The position numbers and the translations under genes were made by a program. Below are positions 9,888 to 54,591 of a DNA stretch of 64,000 nt, one piece after another. Positions within the stretch are counted from its first letter, which is position 1. Every line of letters begins with the position of its first letter. The notes under the pieces are model-generated. The model made no database searches and had not been told where the DNA came from. It saw only the letters and a program-made list of their open reading frames with translations. This DNA is from Holosporales bacterium (GTDB lineage Bacteria > Pseudomonadota > Alphaproteobacteria > Holosporales > Holosporaceae). The stretch spans positions 28,442 to 92,441 of the forward strand of contig CANHKV010000002.1 in assembly GCA_947461445.1 (NCBI GenBank), written 5' to 3'.

Positions 9888-10271
9888 TTAAAAGTTCAAT
9901 AAAAACCATTTCCATTCCATTTTTTTTAATTCTTCTCTTGATTCGCGTTGAATAGTCCATGTCGATAATTTATCTTTAAGTTTTCCTTTTACTGCTCTTG
10001 CTTTCTGTTCTTCTGGGGTGATATTAGAGTTCTCCTCTTTCATAATATGGTCTGTGATTGGATCAAAATTATTTAATTTATTTTGTTCTCTTTGGATGGT
10101 GGCATTAATAACAGGATTTTCGGGGGCTGTGCTTTGTAAACTCAGTCCCCCATATTATGGGTCAACTCATCCTTCAAAAGCTTGTCAATCTTTTTTCCAT
10201 CGAGAATTAATTCCATTTTTTGTTTGGTTTTTTTTAGGCAAGATTTCTTCCGGGGTGGCAGTATAGATCAT
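9888..10271 (-). pseudogene. Degraded 128-codon ORF (K/E/L-rich) interrupted between a T8 and a C5 tract
   Basis: The frame starting at ATG 10271 is open to the stop at 9888-9890 except for three stops clustered in about 45 nt. That stretch is open in a second frame bounded by homopolymers at 10228-10235 and 10147-10151. Confidence 0.35.
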
Positions 10272-10289
10272 AAGATCCACTTCTTCACA

Positions 10290-11060
10290 TCAGGCGCCTG
10301 TATTGTTACCGGAATGGTGTTCTAATAACTTTTTTAGAAGTAATTGTGTGTAAAGTATTTTACAATATTCGAAGCTTGTATCAAATACGCGGTCAACCAT
10401 TCTTTGCTTTACATCTAAAGTCAAGTTTATTGGAACGGATTCTTTCATAACCGCTGTTTTTGCTGATTCACACAATTCGCTATACAGCGCTCTTGCATAA
10501 TTAAACTTGCGAGCAATGCCAAAATCATTTGGTATCTTACGGCTAACTGTGAATAAAGAGGACAAATTTTTAACCATTTGGTTGGTAAATGTCACCCCAG
10601 GTTCCATTCCATGGATTTCTTTGTTATTCAGAATTTGAGAGAACTTATGTACAAACAGATCGCCTGCACATAAAGAAAGTAATTTCCATCTTCCGATTTC
10701 GCTATGATTTTCAAACATATATTTTTCAAGAGAGCGGACCTCTCCATTTTTTTCAATAGATGATGGACCACGTATCTTCAAACTAGGATCTATTGTTGCC
10801 TTAATTATTTGCTCTATCATTTGTGGAGTAATACCGCTGTCAATTAAAATATAGTCAAGTCCATCGCTCATTGCTCTCTCAATTTTACCCAAGTTTTTTA
10901 TCTTGTGTTTTTGACACAATTCAAAAAATTTACGTTCTTTGCTTTTTGAAGATTGAACATGTTTTACTGCGACTTCATCCTTTGTTTCTTCTACACATTG
11001 AACATGGTTTGCTCCTGTTAATAACGCCATAAGGGCCATAGTTTTCATCCAATGTTTCAT
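10290..11060 (-). CDS. Hypothetical secreted protein (256 aa from the MKHW start), AT-rich island
   Basis: ATG at 11060 is preceded by SD AAAGGTG. Signal-peptide-like MKHWMKTMALMALLTGANHVQC. The ORF track starts 9 codons upstream. No family recognised. Confidence 0.55.
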   Translation of the reverse strand: MKHWMKTMALMALLTGANHVQCVEETKDEVAVKHVQSSKSKERKFFELCQKHKIKNLGKIERAMSDGLDYILIDSGITPQMIEQIIKATIDPSLKIRGPSSIEKNGEVRSLEKYMFENHSEIGRWKLLSLCAGDLFVHKFSQILNNKEIHGMEPGVTFTNQMVKNLSSLFTVSRKIPNDFGIARKFNYARALYSELCESAKTAVMKESVPINLTLDVKQRMVDRVFDTSFEYCKILYTQLLLKKLLEHHSGNNTGA

Positions 11061-11162
11061 ACATACACCTTTTTGTTGATTGTCCAATTACTTTAGGCCA
11101 AAAATTGTTTTTTTAAAATATTTTTAGCCACTTTTTTAAATTGGGATTTATGCCATCCAATG
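11021..11162. repeat. Copy A of a 142-bp repeat (dnaE 3' end fragment, intergenic region, SD and signal-peptide coding)
   Basis: 3 mismatches in 142 nt against 12616-12757 by manual alignment. Confidence 0.9.
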
Positions 11163-11174
11163 GTGTCGTCAAAG

Positions 11175-11216
11175 GACACCTCGGAAACCACGGGTTGAGG
11201 TGTCTGTGATTTTTTA
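11175..11216. terminator. Terminator-like hairpin (8-bp GC-containing stem) flanked by an A-tract and a T-tract
   Basis: GACACCTC-N14-GAGGTGTC followed by TGTGATTTTTT on the + strand. It lies just downstream of the minus-strand 341-aa ORF, so the functional direction is uncertain. Confidence 0.35.
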
Positions 11217-11261
11217 ACAATATGACATTTAATCGTTGTGGCGCCGTAGTAATGCCTTAGT

Positions 11262-12287
11262 TCATTCTTTTTTCGGCGGAATCATAGCCTTAGTTAACTC
11301 TTCTTTCGGCGGAATTGTTAGCGCCATATCTATACCATAACCACTAGGTTTACCAGTTGATTTTTCTTTCAACGGAATACTTACTGGGTGTTTTAAAAAA
11401 ACACCATCATAGTAGCTAAACAGTGCTATTCTCAGCATTCGTTCAACGAAATAGAGCTCAGTCATACTTAGCTTATTCATACTTGGCTCAGTCATACTTA
11501 CTGAAGTTTTTGACATTAAATGTGTAAGATCTGGGACATTTTTATCTTCTTTAACGATGCTAGATACATCATAAAGATCAGGATAGTCTATATAAAAATT
11601 TTTATAATCCAGAATTGGCACATTTATAATTATTATAACACGAATTGACTCATTTGCACCTGTTTCAATACTTTTGGCATTGGATTGAGTAAATTGAATA
11701 GTGTATTTTATAGACTCTTCTTGAGATTCACTAGATGGTACATAAGATCTTATTGATACGGTTTTAATTTTTTTGAAACTATCCATACAACGTACAAAAT
11801 TAAGTAAAGTGCGCACTCTTTCAGTTGAAAAATGTTTTGGTGATTTGTAAAAAAACAAATGTTTATTAAAATCATCTAATGTTTTAAACACTCCATTTGG
11901 GCAATCATTAATATTATGTAAAAATTCTAACAACACACCTAGTATTAATTCTTTATAAATTTCCTTAATATCTTTAGAATCTATGTTTGTAAATTCTTTT
12001 CCGGATTTATTTTCGCATTCTTTTTTTAAATCATTAACATCTATTAACATTATGCGGGACATTGGTTCCATACTCTTTTTATCGAACATACCCAACTTTT
12101 TTTCATAACCATTATTATCAATTTTGTCATTCAGAGATTTTTGTAATTCTTCTAGATACTCTTCCCGTGTTAAGGTAAGGGTGTTTTCACCATAAAGGAA
12201 TGAACGCTTTTCAAAACAATTGCCACCATATTGGTAACAATCAGGATGATCTCCCCTAGCATACCCTTCCTCCGTATGCTTCTTCAA
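11262..12287 (-). CDS. Hypothetical protein (341 aa), AT-rich island, no signal peptide
   Basis: Long ORF in very AT-rich DNA. The only in-frame start is TTG and no SD is seen, so it may be 5'-damaged. No family recognised. Confidence 0.45.
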   Translation of the reverse strand: MKKHTEEGYARGDHPDCYQYGGNCFEKRSFLYGENTLTLTREEYLEELQKSLNDKIDNNGYEKKLGMFDKKSMEPMSRIMLIDVNDLKKECENKSGKEFTNIDSKDIKEIYKELILGVLLEFLHNINDCPNGVFKTLDDFNKHLFFYKSPKHFSTERVRTLLNFVRCMDSFKKIKTVSIRSYVPSSESQEESIKYTIQFTQSNAKSIETGANESIRVIIIINVPILDYKNFYIDYPDLYDVSSIVKEDKNVPDLTHLMSKTSVSMTEPSMNKLSMTELYFVERMLRIALFSYYDGVFLKHPVSIPLKEKSTGKPSGYGIDMALTIPPKEELTKAMIPPKKE

Positions 12288-12412
12288 AGGAAAAAAATTA
12301 ACATGTTTGCTATCAGTATTTTTTTACGCTCAATAAAACAATTGGAAAATAATTCTTTAAAAATTTGATGAATTTGAAAACTAGCATATTCTTTAATTTT
12401 ACATTCTTCATT

Positions 12413-25796: not shown

Positions 25797-26597
25797 TCAT
25801 ATTCCCATCTCTCCTTTGGGATAGACGTTCTCAGATAAGCCCTCTGCTATGGCCCGTTTACAATAAAATGGTCGATGCTGTTGGGATAATCCATACTGTG
25901 CTATGGATTTTTGATGGGCTTGGGTACCGTATCCTTTGTTTTTATTCCAGGAATACACAGGGTTTTCCTGGTGTAATTCATTCATATTTTCATCTCTTGC
26001 CACTTTGGCTAAAATGGATGCCAATGCCACGCTGTAACTTTGACCATCACCACCAGGACATGATTTTTGTACCCATTTTGCGGGCAATCCATGTCGACCA
26101 TCCACAACCACCCCTTGAATGGTGTGTAGAAAGGGGGTGGATGCGCCCTTTTCTCTCCAATAAATCCAAGATCCAGAGTTCAAACCCTGTAATGGCTGTG
26201 GCAATACCCCGGATAAATAACCATCTAAACATTGAACAGCCTGCACCATGGCTTGCAGTGTGTGTTGCAATCCCAATCCTTGCACAACATCTTTTACAGG
26301 CACATACGCAAGGGCATAGGATCCCCATGTCTGGTTTTGAATAAAAGCTTGACATAAATAGAGACGTTTTTTGGAACTTAATCTTTTAGAATCATTCAAT
26401 TCTTTTAAGAATTCATCCGATACCAGCTGGCGATTAATCCAAACGGCCGCCACCACAATGGCTCCAGCCCATGCGCCATACCCCACTTCATCCACCCCCA
26501 CAATGTAAGGGGCCTGTTGCACAGGGTCAAGAATCGTGGTCAAGCTGTCCTCATGATCAAAATGTAATGATGCTTTGATGGATGGGGTTCTGGCCAT
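25797..26597 (-). CDS. rnhB: Ribonuclease HII
   Basis: VGVDEVGYGAWAGAIVVAAV (DE-G-G motif), later VVDG and ASILAKV motifs. Longer than usual (266 aa) with an internal insertion. Its ATG overlaps the upstream stop by 1 nt. Confidence 0.8.
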   Translation of the reverse strand: MARTPSIKASLHFDHEDSLTTILDPVQQAPYIVGVDEVGYGAWAGAIVVAAVWINRQLVSDEFLKELNDSKRLSSKKRLYLCQAFIQNQTWGSYALAYVPVKDVVQGLGLQHTLQAMVQAVQCLDGYLSGVLPQPLQGLNSGSWIYWREKGASTPFLHTIQGVVVDGRHGLPAKWVQKSCPGGDGQSYSVALASILAKVARDENMNELHQENPVYSWNKNKGYGTQAHQKSIAQYGLSQQHRPFYCKRAIAEGLSENVYPKGEMGI

Positions 26598-27664
26598 TAT
26601 CGTGAAAAAATCCCTGTGGATGCAGGATAGGTAAATAAAACGATGTGTAAAAGATTAAACAAAAAATGAACGGCCCAAGCATACTGGATGCGCCCTGTTC
26701 CATCATAAACAGCCCCATAAAACAAACCGACCAGCATGGCCAATGCTCCATAAACCGGACCGCCTTTGATGGCGTGATCCATGCCAAAAATCACAGATGC
26801 AGCAAGTATATGTGGTCTGTAACCCATTATATTTGGGCTGAGCAATCGCGTAAACCCCTGCTTTATTCGACCTTGCAAAAATCCACGGAACCAAACTTCT
26901 TCAATAAAACAAACGAAAAAGATGTTGTTTAGGGACCACAAACCCAGAATGCTTGGCCACTTGATATCCCATTCTATGTATCCAATACCCAGCCCACACA
27001 AGACCACCACCGTTACAGTGGCCGCAAAGCCTGCGCTTATCCAGAATACCCTGTCCTTTTTTCTGTGAAAAGATTCAGAGGGTTTGGGGCAATGCGCACC
27101 ATACATACACAGCATCATGGCCAATACCGTGCGATCAAAATTAAACCACATGGTATACGGCACAGAGTGTTCCGAAACTGTATACTGGGATAACACGCAA
27201 ACATTGAAAAATCCTGGCCATTTATGGTGTAAAACACCAAAAAAAATAATCACTATGCCGAAGAAAGCCATGGCTGAAACAATGGATACATCTCTATTTT
27301 TTACCGTTTTATGGTATAAAACCCCCTGTTCAAAGGCACCTGCCGCGTGGAACAGCCCACAACACCAGGCAAATAAGCCAAAAATCACGGCCCCATACCC
27401 ATTCATTAGGCCAGAATACAACCCCAAGGTGCACCCCAATGCCCATACGCCTATGGGTACAATAAAACGGTCTGACACCCAACCATTTCCTGGCAATGCA
27501 TTTTTAATCAACAATCTGGGATAAAAAACAGATGCCGTATTAATCACAGCAATAATTCCAAAAGATAGTGTGACTAAAATGCTTTTCAAATCAATCATTA
27601 TAAATTTCTTAATAAAAACAATTGAATAAAAAAACACTTTTTTTGAACCCCAAGGTTTTTTCAT
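26597..27664 (-). CDS. CPBP-family (CAAX/Abi) intramembrane glutamic protease
   Basis: Polytopic membrane protein with the three CPBP motifs EEVWFRGFLQ, FGMDH and HFLFNLLH. Confidence 0.75.
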   Translation of the reverse strand: MKKPWGSKKVFFYSIVFIKKFIMIDLKSILVTLSFGIIAVINTASVFYPRLLIKNALPGNGWVSDRFIVPIGVWALGCTLGLYSGLMNGYGAVIFGLFAWCCGLFHAAGAFEQGVLYHKTVKNRDVSIVSAMAFFGIVIIFFGVLHHKWPGFFNVCVLSQYTVSEHSVPYTMWFNFDRTVLAMMLCMYGAHCPKPSESFHRKKDRVFWISAGFAATVTVVVLCGLGIGYIEWDIKWPSILGLWSLNNIFFVCFIEEVWFRGFLQGRIKQGFTRLLSPNIMGYRPHILAASVIFGMDHAIKGGPVYGALAMLVGLFYGAVYDGTGRIQYAWAVHFLFNLLHIVLFTYPASTGIFSR

Positions 27665-27753
27665 CCATCATGATCTAAACAGACTGTTTTAACTGTGCCT
27701 TCCCTGATCCTCTGGATCAAACCAAGAGACAGGGATTTCTTGGCATCACACCT

Positions 27754-29085
27754 TTATACGGCACGAGCCTGATTAATGGCCGTGATGGCGCGACTCTGCT
27801 GATCTTCGTCTGGGCCAAAAAATCGGACATCGGTATGCATGCGTAAAAAACCTCGAATTTTCAGGGCATCTTCATTCGTCAGAGACAGACGTACCTCTAT
27901 AACCCGTAAATCCTGGTTTTTTTTAGGATCTGGTTCCTGTAAGGTGTTTGATCGAACAATGCTAGAAATGTAATGCACATGTCCTATAATGGGCTGCATT
28001 TTGTTTGGAAAAGAAATTTCGGCTCTTTGACCCATAAAAATTTTAGAAATATCATTTTCATGCACTTCCGTCACAATTTCCAACCGAGTCAAATCGGCCA
28101 TCAGTAACAGACCTTCATTTGGCCTGCATTGTTCTCCTACCTTGCCATTAATCATCAGAATCATGCCATCCATCGGTGCGCGAATTTGACATTGCTCTAA
28201 AAGTTCCTTGCACAAGACTATTTTTTGCTCTGCAATGTCCAGCACAATTTTTTGCTTTTCTACCAATAAATCTGCCTCGGCAGAATCTTTTTGGATGTTT
28301 TCAAATTCTTGACGAGATACGGCCTTACTGGCGAGCATTTTCTCATGGCGCGCTAGCTTTTCTTTACACTTTTCGGCCTTGTTTTTTGCAATCTCTAACT
28401 CTGTTTTGGCCAATCTGTATTCCAATTCTGCCACGATTTTTTGATTTTCTCTAACCTTATAATGACTAGAAACCACCAGAACATCATTTTTTTGAACACT
28501 CTGCCCCTCTAAAACAGAAATGTCTGATATCACGCCCATATTGGCTTCTTGGTTTGACATGGTAAGGGTTACGATTCCATGGACAGATTCAATGTACCCT
28601 TGGGCACCAACACCCAGTGACAATGGGGTGGATGACGCGTGGTCTGATGATGGGGGTGACGATAGACCAGCGCCTATGGGTTCTGGATTGTGTTGCACCA
28701 TGGCAGGACTTGAGTGTTCAGCCCCTGCCTTTCCTTTTTCGTCAGATGCGTCGCCAGAATCTTCCCGTTTCTTTTTATTGCTCTGGTCGTCCTTGTCATC
28801 CGTTTTTTCATCTTTTTGGTCTTTACGACCTGATGCAACAGTATTGGCTGCCTTTTTGCCTGATGATTTTTGGTCGGATCTGGACTTTTCTTTTCTGGAT
28901 TTTGAAACGGAAGACTTCGAATCAGAGCCCTTCTGGGGTGTGCTGTTTCCAGCATTATCCTCTTGGGACTTATCTCCATTGACACAAAAAACAGACATGA
29001 CTATCGCAAAAAAAACAACCTGTTTCGGCACGACACGGTGACGCCCCATAATCCTTAAAAACATGTTATTTTTACAGACAGCCAT
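27754..29085 (-). CDS. HlyD-family membrane-fusion / periplasmic adaptor protein with a long disordered N-terminal linker
   Basis: N-terminal TM anchor, then about 130 aa of K/S/D-rich low complexity, then biotinyl-lipoyl-like, coiled-coil hairpin and beta-barrel segments (IRAPMDGMILMINGKVGE). Confidence 0.65.
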   Translation of the reverse strand: MAVCKNNMFLRIMGRHRVVPKQVVFFAIVMSVFCVNGDKSQEDNAGNSTPQKGSDSKSSVSKSRKEKSRSDQKSSGKKAANTVASGRKDQKDEKTDDKDDQSNKKKREDSGDASDEKGKAGAEHSSPAMVQHNPEPIGAGLSSPPSSDHASSTPLSLGVGAQGYIESVHGIVTLTMSNQEANMGVISDISVLEGQSVQKNDVLVVSSHYKVRENQKIVAELEYRLAKTELEIAKNKAEKCKEKLARHEKMLASKAVSRQEFENIQKDSAEADLLVEKQKIVLDIAEQKIVLCKELLEQCQIRAPMDGMILMINGKVGEQCRPNEGLLLMADLTRLEIVTEVHENDISKIFMGQRAEISFPNKMQPIIGHVHYISSIVRSNTLQEPDPKKNQDLRVIEVRLSLTNEDALKIRGFLRMHTDVRFFGPDEDQQSRAITAINQARAV

Positions 29086-32505: not shown

Positions 32506-32597
32506 ATACAGAGTGTTTGGGCAAAATATCGATTCACCTGGTCAGGTTTGAAAAAAAGCAGCCAAAATCGAACCATTTTGGGTCAAGCACTCTATTT
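32506..32597 (+). ncRNA. ffs: Signal recognition particle RNA (4.5S / small SRP RNA)
   Basis: Conserved domain IV CTGGTCAGGTTT-GAAA-AAAAGCAGCCA (compare E. coli CAGGUCAGGUCC-GGAA-GGAAGCAGCCA). The flanking arms pair (AGAGTG...CACTCT, ATCGATT...AATCGA) and a T-run follows. Ends are approximate. Confidence 0.65.
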
Positions 32598-32621
32598 TTT
32601 CTTTCAAAATTGGTCTAACTG

Positions 32622-38987: not shown

Positions 38988-40529
38988 CTATGCCATAAAA
39001 TGTTCTGCTTTGGCCTTCTTTTCAGCCATAGGTTCTTCCAGAGGCTCAGCAGACACCATCTCATTGTCCAATCCCGCGCCACTAAATGATGCATCTCCTT
39101 CTAAATCCAGGCCCGTGGCATCTATTTTGTCAGACAACGTACTCGGGCTGAACTTATCACTGGATTCAGATAAACTGATCCCATCACGCTGGGATTCCTC
39201 CGCATTGGTCTCTTGAAGAAGATGACGGTTTTCCTGTCCTGCCTCTGTTAATTCTGTCATTTGCGTAATGATGTCCGCATCTGGAGCATCTGTATCTGGA
39301 ACAATGGATCCCAGTTTTTCCACCGTGGGCACAATGGTATCCTGAAATAAACCAAGGGCAGATTGATAGGCCAAATGACCATTTTTTAGGGCTTTTCCCA
39401 CGCTCAACAAATGGCCTTGAAATTTTTCTAATCGAACAGACAGATCTTGACTCATGGCGATAATGCGATGGGTTTTTTGAGAAAATAGGTCTTGACGCCA
39501 TCCTTGGGCAATGGTTTTTAACAGGGCAATGCAGAGCATGGGTGTGGCTAAAATAATGTTTTTTTCCGCAGCCAACTCTAACAAATTGGCATCTCCTTCC
39601 AGTGCAGCGCTTAAAAAAGCTTCTCCCGGGACAAACAACACGGTTAACTCCACGGCATGTTCTTGATACGACCAGTATTTTTTATCCGATAAAGCCTTGA
39701 TATGCACCCCCAAAACACGGGCGTGTTCTTTAATTTTGGCTTGATATTCGGTGGATGTTTTTGCGGATGTTGATTCCAGATAATGGGTCATTGGCGCCTT
39801 GGAATCCACAATAATAGATTTTTTACCGGGCAATCGAATGACCATATCTGGTCGAACACCATGCTTTTTTTCCGTGCTCAAAGTGGGATGCTGTTGAAAA
39901 TCACAATAGGGCAACATTCCGGCCAGCTCGACCACACGACGCAATTGCATTTCCCCCCAACAGCCACGAATGTGCGGTGTACGAAAGGCATTCATCAGAG
40001 CGTTGGTTTCCAAGGATAGAACTTTTTGCCCCTCTGCCAAATGTCCGATTTGTTCCTTTAATCCCGAATATGCTCCCACACGGGTTTGTTCCAAGGCATG
40101 AATATGCTGTTTCATATCTTGTAAATAATGTTCCAGTGGACCAACCAATTGGGTCAAAAATGAGGATTGTTCCTTTAATTGTCCAGTGGTGGATTGCTGG
40201 AATTGGGATAAAATGGGCTGCAGATGAGATAAAAATGTTTTCTGAGCCCCAACCAGTGTTTGACTGCAAATCCCCTGTAATCGATGTTCTATGTCTTTTC
40301 TGGAATCCTGCATGGCAGAGGCTTGTTCTTTGAAAACCGTTTGAAGGTGGGCATTCATTTCGCGCAAATGATGGACCTCTTTTCGACTGGCATTCCATTC
40401 TGTTTCTAGGATTTGATACCGTTGCCGTAAATGATGATGCTCCAATTTTTTGCGATACCCCAAAAGCTCTCGAAAAACCCAACATGCCACAACACCAGAG
40501 CCAATAACAAACGACATATTTATATCCAT
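38988..40529 (-). CDS. rmuC: DNA recombination protein RmuC
   Basis: N-terminal TM helix, long coiled-coil, then an RmuC nuclease-like domain (IIVDSKAPMTHY...FVPGEAF). Acidic C-terminal tail. Confidence 0.85.
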   Translation of the reverse strand: MDINMSFVIGSGVVACWVFRELLGYRKKLEHHHLRQRYQILETEWNASRKEVHHLREMNAHLQTVFKEQASAMQDSRKDIEHRLQGICSQTLVGAQKTFLSHLQPILSQFQQSTTGQLKEQSSFLTQLVGPLEHYLQDMKQHIHALEQTRVGAYSGLKEQIGHLAEGQKVLSLETNALMNAFRTPHIRGCWGEMQLRRVVELAGMLPYCDFQQHPTLSTEKKHGVRPDMVIRLPGKKSIIVDSKAPMTHYLESTSAKTSTEYQAKIKEHARVLGVHIKALSDKKYWSYQEHAVELTVLFVPGEAFLSAALEGDANLLELAAEKNIILATPMLCIALLKTIAQGWRQDLFSQKTHRIIAMSQDLSVRLEKFQGHLLSVGKALKNGHLAYQSALGLFQDTIVPTVEKLGSIVPDTDAPDADIITQMTELTEAGQENRHLLQETNAEESQRDGISLSESSDKFSPSTLSDKIDATGLDLEGDASFSGAGLDNEMVSAEPLEEPMAEKKAKAEHFMA

Positions 40530-40827: not shown

Positions 40828-42663
40828 ATGAAAAGATGGTATTGGGCCAACATCCTGTGTCTAATCGCTGCTGGATGCTCTCAAAAATCAGAAAAAGCAG
40901 TATCAAAAAGATCACTGATGTATACCGAGAAAATGTCTTTTTTAAAGGACTTGCACTCTCAGTTTCCCAGCTCCTTTTCCTTGGCGCTGCTGTTAAGTTT
41001 TATTCAGAAAAACCAACTCAGCGAAGCATCTGGCTATATCAATAAAACACTGGAAAATTATCCAAACTGTGCGGCCTTGCACATTGCCCAGGGATTCATC
41101 TGGGAAGCGAGAGCACTGTTGGGAGAGAGTAATGCTGGAAAAATGGCGACTGTGGCGTATCAAGCGGCTTTAACTGCGGACCAGTCCAATCCCGCAGCCC
41201 ACTATTTGCTGGGTCAACAATATTTATCCCAGGGGGATGCCTTTATGGCGCAACGGCATTTTGCCCAAGGTGTGATGATGCGCCCAGATGAGCATAAACT
41301 ATTGTATGTATTGGCCTGCGCGTCTTATCGCAATGGGGACATTAAAACGGCCTACTGTTCTATTAAAAAAGCATTATCATTGTGCTCGAAAAATCCGTTG
41401 TATTACCGTACAGCCTCTATGATTTACGCTGCCAGTGGACATTTTCAAGACAGTCAGGTGGCCTTTGATTGCTATGCCAAGTTAACAGGAAAAGCCAGTA
41501 CAGGTGATTTGCAGCACATCAAAAACAGAATCGAGTATTGGAAAGGATTGCACGCCAATACCAAAATTACTCGGATGGCGGACGATGATCAGAGCAAAAA
41601 AGATGATAAAAGTGGCGAAAAAAAAGACGATGAACTGCCCAGCATTATCTTGAATGGATACATTTTATTGGTGAACCAAAGCAATAATCAGCAAAAAGGC
41701 AACAACGTATTTAACGCCTATGATCAAGTCAAAAATGTAACCGCCCCCCTATCGGTGGTTTTGGGTGGGTCAACGGCCAATTCAACAGGCAACAAACCTT
41801 TATTTTGGTGGGGCCGTCAACAAGCCACCGATTTTTCTAAGGCATCAGCCACCCTAAAGGGACATACTTTTAATTACAATATCACACCATCTGCCTTGAA
41901 TTATGCCCTTAATATTGCCAATGCTTCTCGATCCATTGCCACGTATTCTGCTCGGCCAACCATTTCTACCTTAATGGGTAAACCGGCTGCCTTTTTTGCT
42001 GGCAGCATTATCCAGGCGGCTCCGGCTGGTGGATCGTTGGTGACCATTGATGCAGGAGACAAATTAGAGGTTAAACCCATCAATATTACAGAAGATGGAT
42101 TAATTACCCTGGATATTACCATGACCTCGGCAGCAGCTGTGGGTGATGGGGGAACCCGAGTGTTGTCTCAAGCTGCATTGTCCCAAGGGCTGAATAACCA
42201 ATTGGTTCAAGTCAACAGTTCTAAAATATCGACCATTGTCAAAGTATATGCTGGTCAAACCATCGTTGTTGGTGGATTAAAAACCATCGTGAAAAAAGTG
42301 GCAGACTCTAGGTTCCCTGTGCTGGGTAATATTCCTATTTTACAATATTTCTTCTCTGCAGTGAACAATAATACTTCGGAAGCCACCATTTTATACCTTC
42401 TCAGTGTTCAATTGGGTGGTCAAGCCAAAACAGCGTATACCAAAATACCGGATCAAAGTGAGGTCTTTAAAGAACTCCATAAAGCCGATCCATCTGGATT
42501 TACCTATTCTGGTCCATCCACATACGCCTTGATTTTAAAACATTTGGGCAAGATGTCTCTGGTTAACGGTTTTCAATCGGGGGATGCATTGGTTATTCCT
42601 GAATCGCAGTTAGAACCATTGTCAGATCGATTGAGCAACCTATCCAGCTTTTTCTATTTTTAA
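40828..42663 (+). CDS. Lipoprotein-like TPR-secretin fusion protein, paralogue 1 (611 aa)
   Basis: Signal peptide plus lipobox-like LIAAGC, about 200 aa of TPR-like helical repeats, an acidic/Lys linker, and a secretin core (ALNYALNIANASRS..., GQTIVVGGLKT...SRFPVLGNIPILQYFF). Aromatic C-terminus FFYF. Confidence 0.7.
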   Translation: MKRWYWANILCLIAAGCSQKSEKAVSKRSLMYTEKMSFLKDLHSQFPSSFSLALLLSFIQKNQLSEASGYINKTLENYPNCAALHIAQGFIWEARALLGESNAGKMATVAYQAALTADQSNPAAHYLLGQQYLSQGDAFMAQRHFAQGVMMRPDEHKLLYVLACASYRNGDIKTAYCSIKKALSLCSKNPLYYRTASMIYAASGHFQDSQVAFDCYAKLTGKASTGDLQHIKNRIEYWKGLHANTKITRMADDDQSKKDDKSGEKKDDELPSIILNGYILLVNQSNNQQKGNNVFNAYDQVKNVTAPLSVVLGGSTANSTGNKPLFWWGRQQATDFSKASATLKGHTFNYNITPSALNYALNIANASRSIATYSARPTISTLMGKPAAFFAGSIIQAAPAGGSLVTIDAGDKLEVKPINITEDGLITLDITMTSAAAVGDGGTRVLSQAALSQGLNNQLVQVNSSKISTIVKVYAGQTIVVGGLKTIVKKVADSRFPVLGNIPILQYFFSAVNNNTSEATILYLLSVQLGGQAKTAYTKIPDQSEVFKELHKADPSGFTYSGPSTYALILKHLGKMSLVNGFQSGDALVIPESQLEPLSDRLSNLSSFFYF

Positions 42664-42674
42664 AAAGGAGCGTT

Positions 42675-44555
42675 ATGAAGCAGTCTATGATGGATCGTGT
42701 ATTTTGGAAGACAATGGTCACACTGGCCTTGTCTTTGCTGGTACAACAAGGGTGTCAAAACCGAAAATCGCGATCTGTTTCTGTGCCATCGGCTAAGCCC
42801 AGCCCCATGGATTTCTTGAAACAGGGTCCCATTTCATTCCCATCTTTTTTTTCCCTATCCAAGGTCAAAACTTTTATCCAGCAAGGCCAGTTAAAAGAAG
42901 CCTCTCTGTACGTCAATCAATCCATCAATATCGAGCCCCGAAACGCGGCTCTGCATTTATTAAATGCCTTTATTTATGAATCTTTGCTGGACACGGGCCA
43001 AGATGATTGCAAAGAATTAATTGAAATCGCCTATCGAACGGCCATGGATTTGGATCCATCCTTGTGGCTGACCCATTATTTGCGTGGATTGAACGCATTA
43101 AAAATGTCGAAATACCGAGAGGCTCAAAAATACTTCGTAGAAGCCTATGCCCTATGTTCCGTTAACCCTGATGTGGTCTATTCCTTGGCGTACGCGTCCT
43201 ATTATGCCTATGATTTACCCGTAGCATTGACGTTTATTGAAAAAGCCGCAAAAATGTGTCCAAAAAAACCCGAAATCATCCGGTCTGCAGCCATGATTTG
43301 TGCCGCAGCAGGGGAAAAAGCAAAGGCAGAACAGTACCTTAATGCATACAGTCAGCTGGTTGGAAAAAACCAGTCGGATATTGCCACGATGAAACAGCGC
43401 TTGAACCAGTGGGAAAAAACAGGCACGCGTATTCAGTTAATGGGGTCCGCACCAGGCACAGAAGCCTCTGGTTTACGGGCCAACTCTGAGTTTTCATCCT
43501 TTGAAAGTAAAAAAGGTAATGATGAAAAGAATTTAGAGACAAAAGAAAGTACGGATTCTCCGCCATCATTGATTTTTGACACGACACTGATCAGTTATTC
43601 TGATCAAAAAACAGAAAGCAGAGGGCAAAATATTTTTAACAGCTTGCAAGTTATTTTGGGTGGGGCCGCGGATTCATCTGGAAACCTCAACGCATCCCCC
43701 CAATGGAATATTTCTCAAAAATTTGCCAGCACCAATGGGATTAGGGACGTTGCCAGCACCATTAGTACCTTGGCTTATGGCATTACGCCTTTTGCCATGC
43801 AGTACAGTCTGAATATTGCCAACTCTGGACGATCAAAAGTAGAACTGCTATCGCGTGCCAGCTTGTCAACAACCCTTGGTCACTCTGCCTATTTTCTGCA
43901 GGGGGCTCAATATACAGGTTCGACGGCAGGAAACCTGACGGGTGCTGCAACCGCATCCATTGACGCTGGTATGAAAATTGAAATTCGCCCGGTATCTCTG
44001 TCAGAAAAAGGAGAAGTTGTGCTGGAAATCACCCTCGTGGGTTCGGATTTTTTGAATTTACCCAATTCTGGAATCGGAATATCCAACCAGCTGATTCAAA
44101 TCCAGCGTTCTAAGGTATCCACCACCGTCAAAGCCATGCTGGGTCAAACCATTGTGATATCCGGTATACAAACCCAACAACGCAACGAAAGCAGAGGCGG
44201 GTTCCCTCTATTGCAAAGCATACCTTTGCTTCAATACTTTACCTCTAATTTCCAGAAAAATGATAACATCACGTCTGCCATCTTTTTGATGACCCCACGA
44301 TTGGGTGGAAATTCTCCATTATCACCTGCTCAAACCCAACAGCAACGCTCTATTGCTCAACAATTGCAAAAAAGAGGCATCATATCACAGCTGGAATATT
44401 CCAATATTTATCATATCCTGCGAACCATTCAATCCTTTCAATTGATGGCATTTTCTCAATTGCGATCAGGTGATTTACCCTCCCCTGTTCGGGCCTATGA
44501 TCGAAAAGATTGTCGTGAAAAAATATCTCAACTGGGGTCTTTTTTGTGGTACTAA
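42675..44555 (+). CDS. Lipoprotein-like TPR-secretin fusion protein, paralogue 2 (626 aa)
   Basis: Strong AAGGAG SD. Signal peptide with a weak lipobox (VQQGC). Collinear similarity to paralogue 1 in both the TPR part and the secretin core (GQTIVISGIQT...GGFPLLQSIPLLQYF). Ends in FLWY. Confidence 0.7.
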   Translation: MKQSMMDRVFWKTMVTLALSLLVQQGCQNRKSRSVSVPSAKPSPMDFLKQGPISFPSFFSLSKVKTFIQQGQLKEASLYVNQSINIEPRNAALHLLNAFIYESLLDTGQDDCKELIEIAYRTAMDLDPSLWLTHYLRGLNALKMSKYREAQKYFVEAYALCSVNPDVVYSLAYASYYAYDLPVALTFIEKAAKMCPKKPEIIRSAAMICAAAGEKAKAEQYLNAYSQLVGKNQSDIATMKQRLNQWEKTGTRIQLMGSAPGTEASGLRANSEFSSFESKKGNDEKNLETKESTDSPPSLIFDTTLISYSDQKTESRGQNIFNSLQVILGGAADSSGNLNASPQWNISQKFASTNGIRDVASTISTLAYGITPFAMQYSLNIANSGRSKVELLSRASLSTTLGHSAYFLQGAQYTGSTAGNLTGAATASIDAGMKIEIRPVSLSEKGEVVLEITLVGSDFLNLPNSGIGISNQLIQIQRSKVSTTVKAMLGQTIVISGIQTQQRNESRGGFPLLQSIPLLQYFTSNFQKNDNITSAIFLMTPRLGGNSPLSPAQTQQQRSIAQQLQKRGIISQLEYSNIYHILRTIQSFQLMAFSQLRSGDLPSPVRAYDRKDCREKISQLGSFLWY

Positions 44556-44649: not shown

Positions 44650-45333
44650 ATGCTGAATAAAAAGGACGCATTGAATTTTATGACGATAAAACCAGACCGT
44701 TTGCCCAGAGCCGTATTATTTGATTGGGATAATACATTGGTGGATACCACCCATGATACCTTGCGGGCATTGAATGCTGTATGTGCTGCTTTTAATCACC
44801 GGCCCATGACCCTGGATGAATTTCAAAAAAAACCATCCCTAACCATTCGATCCTTTCTTTCCAGTATTGTTGCGCCATCTGACATCAGCGCAGCAGAATC
44901 TGTGTTTTTTCAACACACCACCCATCTTGAATTGGTGTTGATGCCCCACGCCCACGCCGTTGTGACGTGGTTACATCATCAAAATATTCCTATGGCCATT
45001 GTCAGCAACAAAGGTGGAGATCGACTGCGCAAAGAGATTAAACATTTGAATTTATCCCATGCGTTTTATTGTGCCATTGGATCTGGGGATACCCATGAAG
45101 ACAAACCATCCGCTACTCCCTTGCTCCATGCATTGGCACAAAACAATCTGTCGGCGTCTCGTAATATTTGGTTTGTCGGAGATTCTGTTGTGGACATGAT
45201 GTGCGCCCATCATGCAGGATGTTTGCCTGTTTCTGTCAGCCAACAAGCCGATCATTACGAGCACCCAAAAGTCAAAGCTGGAAATTGTGAAGGCCTGTTA
45301 CAGTTGCTGGAAGGATTTCATAAAAAGGCCTAA
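44650..45333 (+). CDS. HAD-superfamily hydrolase (phosphoglycolate phosphatase-like)
   Basis: Motif I VLFDWDNTLVDT (DxDxT), motif II VSNK, motif III/IV K...GDSVVDM. Confidence 0.75.
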   Translation: MLNKKDALNFMTIKPDRLPRAVLFDWDNTLVDTTHDTLRALNAVCAAFNHRPMTLDEFQKKPSLTIRSFLSSIVAPSDISAAESVFFQHTTHLELVLMPHAHAVVTWLHHQNIPMAIVSNKGGDRLRKEIKHLNLSHAFYCAIGSGDTHEDKPSATPLLHALAQNNLSASRNIWFVGDSVVDMMCAHHAGCLPVSVSQQADHYEHPKVKAGNCEGLLQLLEGFHKKA

Positions 45334-47548: not shown

Positions 47549-47621
47549 TGCCCGAGGCCGGAATCGAACCAGCGACACAAGGTTTTTCAGACCTTTGCTC
47601 TACCAACTGAGCTACTCGGGC
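47549..47621 (-). tRNA. tRNA-Phe (anticodon GAA)
   Basis: Manual cloverleaf: GCCCGAG/CTCGGGC acceptor, GCTC/GAGC D-stem, AAGGT-CTGAAAA-ACCTT anticodon arm, GCTGG-TTCGATT-CCGGC T-arm, discriminator A. CCA is not encoded. Confidence 0.9.
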
Positions 47622-54514: not shown

Positions 54515-54591
54515 GGGGGCGTAGCTCAGTTGGTTAGAGTGCTGGTCTGTCACGCCGGAGGTCGCGGGTTCGAGCCCCGTCGCCCCCGCCA
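54515..54591 (+). tRNA. tRNA-Asp (anticodon GUC), CCA encoded
   Basis: Manual cloverleaf: GGGGGCG/CGCCCCC acceptor, CTGGT-CTGTCAC-GCCGG anticodon arm, GCGGG-TTCGAGC-CCCGT T-arm, discriminator G, then CCA. Confidence 0.9.

Follow-up and report, generated by a model that had tools for sequence, protein, structure and literature searches.

Introduction

To our knowledge, each secretin characterised so far forms the outer-membrane terminus of some larger machine, whether a type II or type III secretion system (T2SS, T3SS), a type IV pilus (T4P), a Tad pilus or the apparatus of filamentous-phage assembly, and is coupled to that machine through its N-domains; in the known systems it is the N0 domain that couples the secretin to GspC, PilP or RcpC. 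Here we describe two adjacent genes, A and B, in a stretch of 64,000 nucleotides from a Holosporales bacterium (contig CANHKV010000002.1; the whole stretch that was analysed is called the window below), each of which encodes a predicted lipoprotein that combines tetratricopeptide repeats (TPR) with a secretin core. We see about an even chance that A and B are functional, self-targeting liposecretins of a distinct family, working without a co-encoded pseudopilus machine.

Among the closest described proteins are the liposecretins HxcQ, BfpB, TcpC and PilN of R64, which, like the members of the A/B family, are secretins with an N-terminal lipobox of their own. However, they keep their N-domains and sit inside complete T2SS or type IVb pilus (T4bP) operons, whereas in the family of A and B a TPR module and a disordered linker take the place of every N-domain, and no genes for a machine lie alongside. 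XqhA of Pseudomonas aeruginosa, a secretin with canonical N0-N3 domains that works with the Xcp T2SS, is likewise encoded away from any secretion operon, but the A/B family differs from it in having no N-domains and in forming its own clade. In the PilF/PilW/Tgl-PilQ and TadD-RcpA systems a lipid-anchored TPR protein of ~220 amino acids (aa) aids assembly of the secretin; there the pilotin and the secretin are separate polypeptides, whereas A and B hold the TPR region and an aromatic tail in one. HxcQ of P. aeruginosa dispenses with a pilotin, as its lipid anchor does the piloting (Viarre 2009, cited in PMC12475490), BfpB of enteropathogenic Escherichia coli is described as a lipoprotein secretin (PMC12531336), and the last residues of RcpA bind the TPR groove of TadD (PMC10499894).

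Results

Two paralogous genes with a shared domain order

Genes A (40828-42663, plus strand, 611 aa) and B (42675-44555, plus strand, 626 aa) form an operon-like tandem, in which an 11-nt spacer (42664-42674, plus strand), read as TAA-AAAGGAGCGTT-ATG, provides an AAGGAG Shine-Dalgarno sequence for B. Both open reading frames (ORFs) have Pfam matches to Secretin and TPR, and alignment of the two proteins gave 31% identity over 586 aa (E 2e-83), identifying them as paralogues. The pair lies between rmuC (38988-40529, minus strand) and a HAD hydrolase gene (44650-45333, plus strand). These observations bear out the initial annotation, made from the sequence alone, as to the co-directional paralogues, their spacing, the AAGGAG element and the two flanks. 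A scan for promoters and terminators found nothing above the shuffled expectation.

The domain order of the family to which A and B belong is a lipobox, ~5-6 TPRs, a flexible linker, a secretin double-barrel core and an ~80-aa helical module ending in F-L-Y-[YF]. The signal peptide of A (40828-40878, plus strand) ends in the lipobox MKRWYWANILCLIAAG-C with Cys17, and this LIAAGC sequence passes PROSITE PS51257. That of B (42675-42755, plus strand) ends in an atypical lipobox, ..LSLLVQQG-C with Cys27; LLVQQGC fails the strict PS51257 rule, although it is kept in the B orthologues of two related loci (L001 and L002). A signal peptide ending in Cys is thus present in both proteins, as had been annotated (LIAAGC and VQQGC). 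The lipobox Cys is invariant across the family alignment (A4, n=54 sequences), and among 135 full-length family representatives 79% have a strict and 93% a loose lipobox. On the lipobox and the invariant Cys, A is a liposecretin whose lipidation is predicted.

The remainder of each protein was examined with Pfam, AlphaFold2 (AF2) monomer models and Foldseek. The models gave the same picture for A and B, with a mean predicted local distance difference test score (pLDDT) of 59.9 and 62.6, respectively. The TPR repeats occupy the N-terminal third, with TPR_2 above the Pfam cut-off in both proteins, and the modelled module is all-helical and confident (pLDDT 70-88 in A, 70-93 over both). In A it covers residues ~37-243 (40936-41556, plus strand), with at least 10 AF2 helices and matches to TPR_2, TPR_17 and TPR_19, and Foldseek matched this part to CTPR and OGT TPR structures; in B it covers residues ~46-252 (42810-43430, plus strand), with AF2 helices at 61-252 (pLDDT 81-93) and matches to TPR_2 and TPR_19. 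From the last TPR helix the chain of both models passes through a disordered linker into the secretin strands, which start at residue 272 in A and 298 in B. The linker of A is charged (residues 244-271, DDDQSKKDDKSGEKKDDE; 41557-41640, plus strand; pLDDT <50 at 245-268) and that of B is longer (residues 253-297; 43431-43565, plus strand; pLDDT <50 at 251-294), so that the two measure 28-45 aa against a range of ~25 to >100 aa across the family.

The secretin core takes up residues 272-530 of A (41641-42417, plus strand) and 298-544 of B (43566-44306, plus strand), both delimited by the modelled beta-strands. Pfam PF00263 (Secretin) matched A at 368-525 with 67.5 bits and B at 386-543 with 69 bits (gathering cut-off 27.5), and positions 274-541 of the family profile align with residues 290-583 of the GspD chain. 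Foldseek matched the C-terminal half to GspD, InvG, PilQ, RcpA, pIV and BfpB with probability 1.0 and E from 1e-15 to 1e-11, that is, to T2SS, T3SS, type IVa pilus, T4bP, Tad and phage secretins alike, the pLDDT of the monomer being only moderate. The lipobox-TPR-linker-secretin architecture of the initial annotation was therefore borne out by Pfam, AF2 and Foldseek.

Neither the profile searches nor the models revealed an N-domain. A Pfam scan of A and B at E<=1 gave no Secretin_N, N0-N3, STN, AMIN, BON or CpaC-type N-domain; at the same threshold the GspD N-domain models PF21305 and PF03958 had no match, and neither PF13629 (T2SS-T3SS_pil_N) nor the BON domain of RcpA/CpaC was found by Pfam in either protein. 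The AF2 models show no globular domain between TPR and barrel. The proposal that the TPR region had replaced the N-domains thus agrees with a search that detects the secretin domain and none of N0-N3, AMIN, STN or BON; the TPR module stands in for every known secretin N-domain.

The C-terminal end proved different from what had been annotated, namely an aromatic terminus typical of outer-membrane proteins that depend on the beta-barrel assembly machinery. The aromatic termini are indeed present (FFYF in A, FLWY in B), but the core itself is not C-terminal, because a conserved module of ~80 aa follows the barrel: residues 531-611 of A, ending SFFYF (42418-42660, plus strand), and 545-626 of B, ending SFLWY (44307-44552, plus strand). 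Among its conserved positions are SGD and, at the very end, S-F-[LF]-[YW]-[FY], and a terminus of the form F-[LIM]-[YWF]-[YF] is found in 82% of the 135 full-length representatives. AF2 predicts the module to be helical, with low confidence, so that the aromatic motif lies ~80 aa past the barrel on a predicted helix (pLDDT <50). In both models it ends a helical extension outside the barrel and does not close the last strand, so that the models lend the assembly-signal interpretation no support.

A distinct family of TPR-secretins

An exhaustive HMMER search of 1.84 billion representatives recovered 580 family representatives at E<=1e-30. The best 150 all had E<=1e-97; most were 570-790 aa long and were matched over the TPR region, the secretin core and the C-terminal module. 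A word-indexed search had given only ~20 members, suggesting a tiny family, a figure that HMMER corrected to hundreds. The indexed search badly underestimates family size, probably because its prefilter of 8000 candidates fills up with TPR words. In that search generic secretins scored <=79 bits and members >450 bits, and a neighbour-joining tree of the secretin core recovers the family as monophyletic. The sources annotate members as 'tetratricopeptide repeat protein', 'GspD', 'CpaC' or 'TadD'. Literature searches on secretins or pili of Finniella and Holosporales, on liposecretins, on orphan or TPR-fused secretins and on jacalin with secretin found no description of the family, the one relevant point being a general remark that type IV pili are incomplete in Holosporales. 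By profile scores and tree, then, A and B belong to a distinct, unnamed family of hundreds of clusters and are not a one-off fusion. Two unrelated TPR-plus-secretin proteins (P0051 and P0052) were also encountered, on short contigs whose context was uninformative.

Comparison with known secretins and pilotins

The type-specific NCBIfam secretin models matched A and B at 33-49 bits, and none reached its cut-off (238-351 bits). The GspD model TIGR02517 gave 36.0 bits for A and 33.4 for B against a cut-off of 351, in the C-terminal core only; the PilQ model TIGR02515 gave 41.5 and 48.7 against 284, and the SctC model TIGR02516 gave 40.1 and 34.6 against 238. The best sub-threshold matches of the core were to MshL and PilQ, and the HofQ models matched weakly.

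These scores bear on the possibility that A and B are the secretins of a T4P, a competence pseudopilus or a T2SS whose genes are scattered over a reduced genome, the TPR module then replacing the PilF/PilW/TadD pilotin. We regard this as possible but on the unlikely side. Although the nearest matches were to MshL and PilQ and some members carry the names GspD, CpaC or TadD, all type-specific models stayed far below cut-off, and N0, the coupling domain of the known systems, is absent, as are N1-N3. Two sources are in favour: a TXSScan survey reports type IV pili to be incomplete in most Holosporales, with Tad pili in some (PMC9992710), and Bdellovibrio is a documented case of scattered Tad genes (bioRxiv 10.64898/2026.07.08.737194). 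The calls of incomplete type IV pili may, however, themselves be triggered by secretins of the A/B type.

The TPR region had also been called pilotin-like. The PilW model TIGR02521 scored 26-31 bits (cut-off 154) and the Tgl model NF033762 20-24 bits (cut-off 225), neither of them doing better than MamA, PrsT or SycD, and PilF, PilW and TadD were absent from the best 60 PDB matches of the TPR profile. The NCBIfam scan and the PDB profile search thus found only generic TPR similarity and gave no support to a specific kinship with pilotins; 'pilotin-like' is an analogy, not a demonstrated relationship.

Conservation of the pair and selection on both copies

The genomic loci nearest to the window, at 88-91% identity, are metagenome-assembled genomes (MAGs) of Candidatus Finniella inopinata, Holosporaceae and unclassified Alphaproteobacteria; Finniella belongs to the Holosporales, family Paracaedibacteraceae. 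The host is thus a Finniella-like intracellular symbiont, in keeping with the host-associated bacterium proposed at first. A protein 99% identical to A (P0001) occurs in public MAGs. The tandem, together with the order rmuC, A, B, HAD, ctpA, recurs in loci L001, L002, L094 and L095 and on the contig of P0012, so that a search for the pair in relatives finds it down to 52% identity (the A copy of the P0012 contig), and the gap between A and B is 8-11 nt in L001, L002, L094 and the P0012 contig. In another Finniella-like lineage, a 65-aa ORF without Pfam match shares 4 nt with the end of B, stop codon included, and precedes the HAD gene (L094:11842-12039, L095:5984-6181); there is no obvious gene at the matching position of the window.

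The ratio of nonsynonymous to synonymous substitution rates (dN/dS, Nei-Gojobori) was 0.075-0.098 for A and 0.075-0.090 for B, compared with 0.13-0.20 for rmuC and 0.08-0.17 for the HAD gene. These values are as low as or lower than those of the flanking genes; both copies are functional and under strong purifying selection. The core tree (neighbour-joining) places the clade of A as sister to that of B, with a single-copy Holosporales-like clade (P0014-P0021) adjacent and generic secretins outside; the duplication that produced A and B is therefore old but lineage-specific.

The same data address the idea that the genes are functionless remnants, either decaying secretin genes or a domesticated filamentous-phage pIV. 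Orphan genes in a reduced genome could be so explained, and the core has weak similarity to pIV of phage If1 (28% identity over the secretin domain). Against this, the ORFs are intact and conserved to 52% identity with fixed spacing, dN/dS is <0.1 for both, pIV is no closer to the core than other secretins are, and there are no phage genes near the pair in the window. A phage origin of the pair was rejected, as the likeness to pIV is generic only, and on this and the selection analysis the remnant explanation is effectively excluded.

Genomic context of the family

The initial annotation had noted no secretion machinery in the 64 kb, and this was borne out and extends to all 67 family loci. 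A search of all frames of the window revealed neither a secretion-ATPase Walker A motif (G.[TS]GSGK[ST]) nor a prepilin motif. When 806 neighbouring ORFs around 67 family genes were clustered, no Walker A ATPase of the GspE/PilB/PilT/TadA type was found at any of the 67 loci, large contigs of the free-living type included; being 'orphan' is therefore a property of the family and not a peculiarity of the window, and this argues against a dispersed machine. Prepilin-like ORFs were seen in only 2/67 loci, of which L021 has two, 0.6-1.3 kb downstream, an arrangement that would favour one.

Many loci have recurrent partners. In 25/67 (GC 0.51-0.67) a gene for a well-conserved ~900-aa protein, here U900, is adjacent to and co-directional with the secretin gene, typically with gaps of 3-160 nt, and some loci have a second copy; examples are L061:3851-6748, L061:6875-9700, L024:6655-9399 and L044:11802-14489, with ~20 more loci. 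U900 begins with a Sec signal peptide and carries a jacalin-like lectin domain at its C-terminus (PF01419 in 16/16 members; griffithsin and ZG16 in the PDB), and its motifs comprise an N-terminal APEITPSLKKMLGGLPIAGMKD, internal HW..G..EGR repeats and the end ..DQLxFSSTGPR, while most of its length has no Pfam or PDB match. In 11/67 loci (GC 0.43-0.61) periplasmic binding proteins of the TAXI/NMT1_3-like type and secreted pentapeptide-repeat proteins flank the secretin gene, the latter adjacent, on the same strand and with a signal peptide. The three-gene module TAXI/NMT1_3-like, TPR-secretin and pentapeptide-repeat is found at L020:1369-5175, L032:8757-12608, L062:8675-12697, L084:3694-5484 and L035:2386-4262. 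We count these adjacent same-strand partners with signal peptides in favour of export by A and B independently of a co-encoded machine, although the window holds no homologue of U900, of the TAXI-like proteins or of the pentapeptide partners. A parallel has been reported in a cyanobacterium, in which the pentapeptide-repeat protein NIES39_A07680 co-purifies with PilQ (PMC12475490). As in some family loci, a secretin is there linked with a pentapeptide-repeat protein, but that PilQ is canonical and has N-domains, and the association is missing from the Finniella-like window.

The low-GC Holosporales-like loci have no recurrent same-strand partner. Just upstream of a single-copy family gene, six loci of the sister clade (L005/L017, L010, L030, L034, L040) have a conserved divergent comF(DZR_2+PRTase)-folD-yggT block, and in L005 ComEC lies 2 kb downstream. 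Together with the weak HofQ matches, this would suit a HofQ- or PilQ-like pore that takes up DNA or nucleotides and feeds ComEC/ComF in a nucleotide-auxotrophic symbiont. We think such a role quite improbable for A and B: the block is divergent and housekeeping genes lie between, so that it may be mere synteny of one clade; the window, with rmuC and HAD beside the pair, lacks the link; neither competence pilins nor ComEA turned up; and in the higher-GC relatives the coupling is with secreted proteins.

Regulators of the GGDEF-EAL and histidine-kinase types are frequent neighbours of family genes, which would accord with export of a polymer such as exopolysaccharide or slime, A and B then being TPR-plus-channel exporters with a secretin barrel. 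Like A and B, PgaA, BcsC, PelB and AlgK/AlgE combine a TPR scaffold in the periplasm with a channel in the outer membrane, as one protein or as a complex, BcsC and PgaA are among the weak TPR matches, and the lectin partner could bind glycan. Slime secretion by cyanobacteria and by myxobacteria also depends on secretins (PMC12475490). However, the TPR similarity is generic, the channel of these exporters is a monomeric beta-barrel porin in place of a multimeric secretin, no synthase genes lie near A and B, glycosyltransferase or synthase genes are absent from the annotated recurrent neighbour clusters of the family, and slime is of little obvious use to an intracellular symbiont. Polymer export by the pair is, in our judgement, very unlikely.

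One member was found in a cultured bacterium, Asticcacaulis sp. AND118 (Caulobacterales). WP_226746377.1, which NCBI annotates merely as 'tetratricopeptide repeat protein', scores 277 bits against the hidden Markov model of the family and is without the F-L-Y-Y terminus. Its gene lies on plasmid NZ_CP084912.1 (L096 38344-45239) in a row of five hypothetical genes that share one direction; three of these have N-terminal signal-peptide-like sequences (one Tat-like, two Sec) and one has a possible N-terminal DNA-binding motif, recognised by eye, together with TPR.

Mobile elements accompany the family gene at some loci. In one Holosporales-like lineage (L008:1-20923 and L013:1-21977, both from sample ERZ25039503) it follows a TraA/MobA-type relaxase-helicase-Toprim gene and TraD, and L008 has two full copies (68% identical) and a fragment among IS66 and DDE transposases; in this lineage the family gene may travel with mobile elements. 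At L009:8212-13256, portal, S78 protease, capsid and head-tail connector genes lie ~5 kb downstream of a family member, a set that is either a prophage remnant or gene-transfer-agent-like.

Other features of the window

Elsewhere in the window the ORFs of at least 150 aa are dnaE, murB, gatAB, priA, RNase E, dnaX, ligA, hemW, ctpA, uvrB, murC and other housekeeping genes, besides one HlyD-family gene and six without Pfam match. The HlyD-family membrane-fusion protein is encoded at 25797-29085 (minus strand) in a row with RNase HII and an Rce1-like membrane protein of the CAAX protease family, and no ABC transporter or TolC partner for it is present among the annotated ORFs. The region 10001-12300 has the lowest GC of the window (0.334 vs ~0.44-0.47 elsewhere) and contains two ORFs without Pfam match (10290-11087 and 11262-12287, both minus strand); this stretch may have been acquired or may evolve fast. 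When the window was extended through its terminal ORFs, no exactly matching protein was on record, probably owing to differing start-codon assignments. Matches at the Rfam gathering level identified a small signal recognition particle RNA (32507-32599, plus strand) and tRNA genes at 47549-47621 (minus strand) and 54515-54588 (plus strand).

Discussion

If A and B are self-targeting liposecretins that need no co-encoded machine, they would be exported by Sec and lipidated, and Lol would then take the N-terminal anchor to the outer membrane, so that the proteins pilot themselves as HxcQ and BfpB do. The TPR module would lie under the outer membrane as a built-in assembly or docking module, and might clamp the aromatic tail conserved at the C-terminus, much as the RcpA C-terminus is clamped by TadD. 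Several subunits, all of one kind or of both, would build a gated pore through which periplasmic proteins delivered by Sec or Tat leave the cell, with no dedicated pseudopilus machine encoded in cis. In the free-living, higher-GC relatives, the ~900-aa jacalin-lectin protein or the pentapeptide-repeat proteins are the candidates for co-encoded cargo.

Several points weigh against this interpretation. We know of no secretin shown to export protein without a pseudopilus, a needle or a phage filament. The lipobox of B is atypical, and the similarity of the TPR region is generic only. Mean-field direct-coupling analysis of 212 sequences (Meff 181) found no credible contacts between the TPR region and the C-terminal block, the top pairs being hub columns at indel-prone positions, and the AF2 models show no confident contact of TPR and C-terminus, which has pLDDT <50 in both. 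As the partners seen in relatives have no homologue in the window, the cargo inference is not directly transferable to Finniella, and the incomplete type IV pili of most Holosporales and the Tad pili of some leave room for a dispersed machine that may use A and B. Nevertheless, a self-piloting orphan secretin for export is plausible; the family-wide context strengthens it, and it is unproven. A bolder possibility is a minimal, ATPase-less secretin pathway. In it the TPR module would serve, instead of N0-N3, as receptor for Sec- or Tat-exported cargo (the jacalin-lectin or pentapeptide-repeat proteins of free-living relatives, effectors in Finniella) that crosses the outer membrane with no pseudopilus, and the ancient duplication would have made of A and B a hetero-oligomer or a two-channel system at the interface of symbiont and host. 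We think this unlikely, though with a real chance of being right.

In the streamlined genome of an endosymbiont, strong purifying selection maintains both copies, and the family would offer a natural model of a 'pilotin fused in cis' for secretin biogenesis. With Asticcacaulis sp. AND118, a carrier is available in culture in which the question can be tested. In either case the family reveals something about secretins: a new way of coupling a secretin to its machine, or a machine-independent route across the outer membrane.

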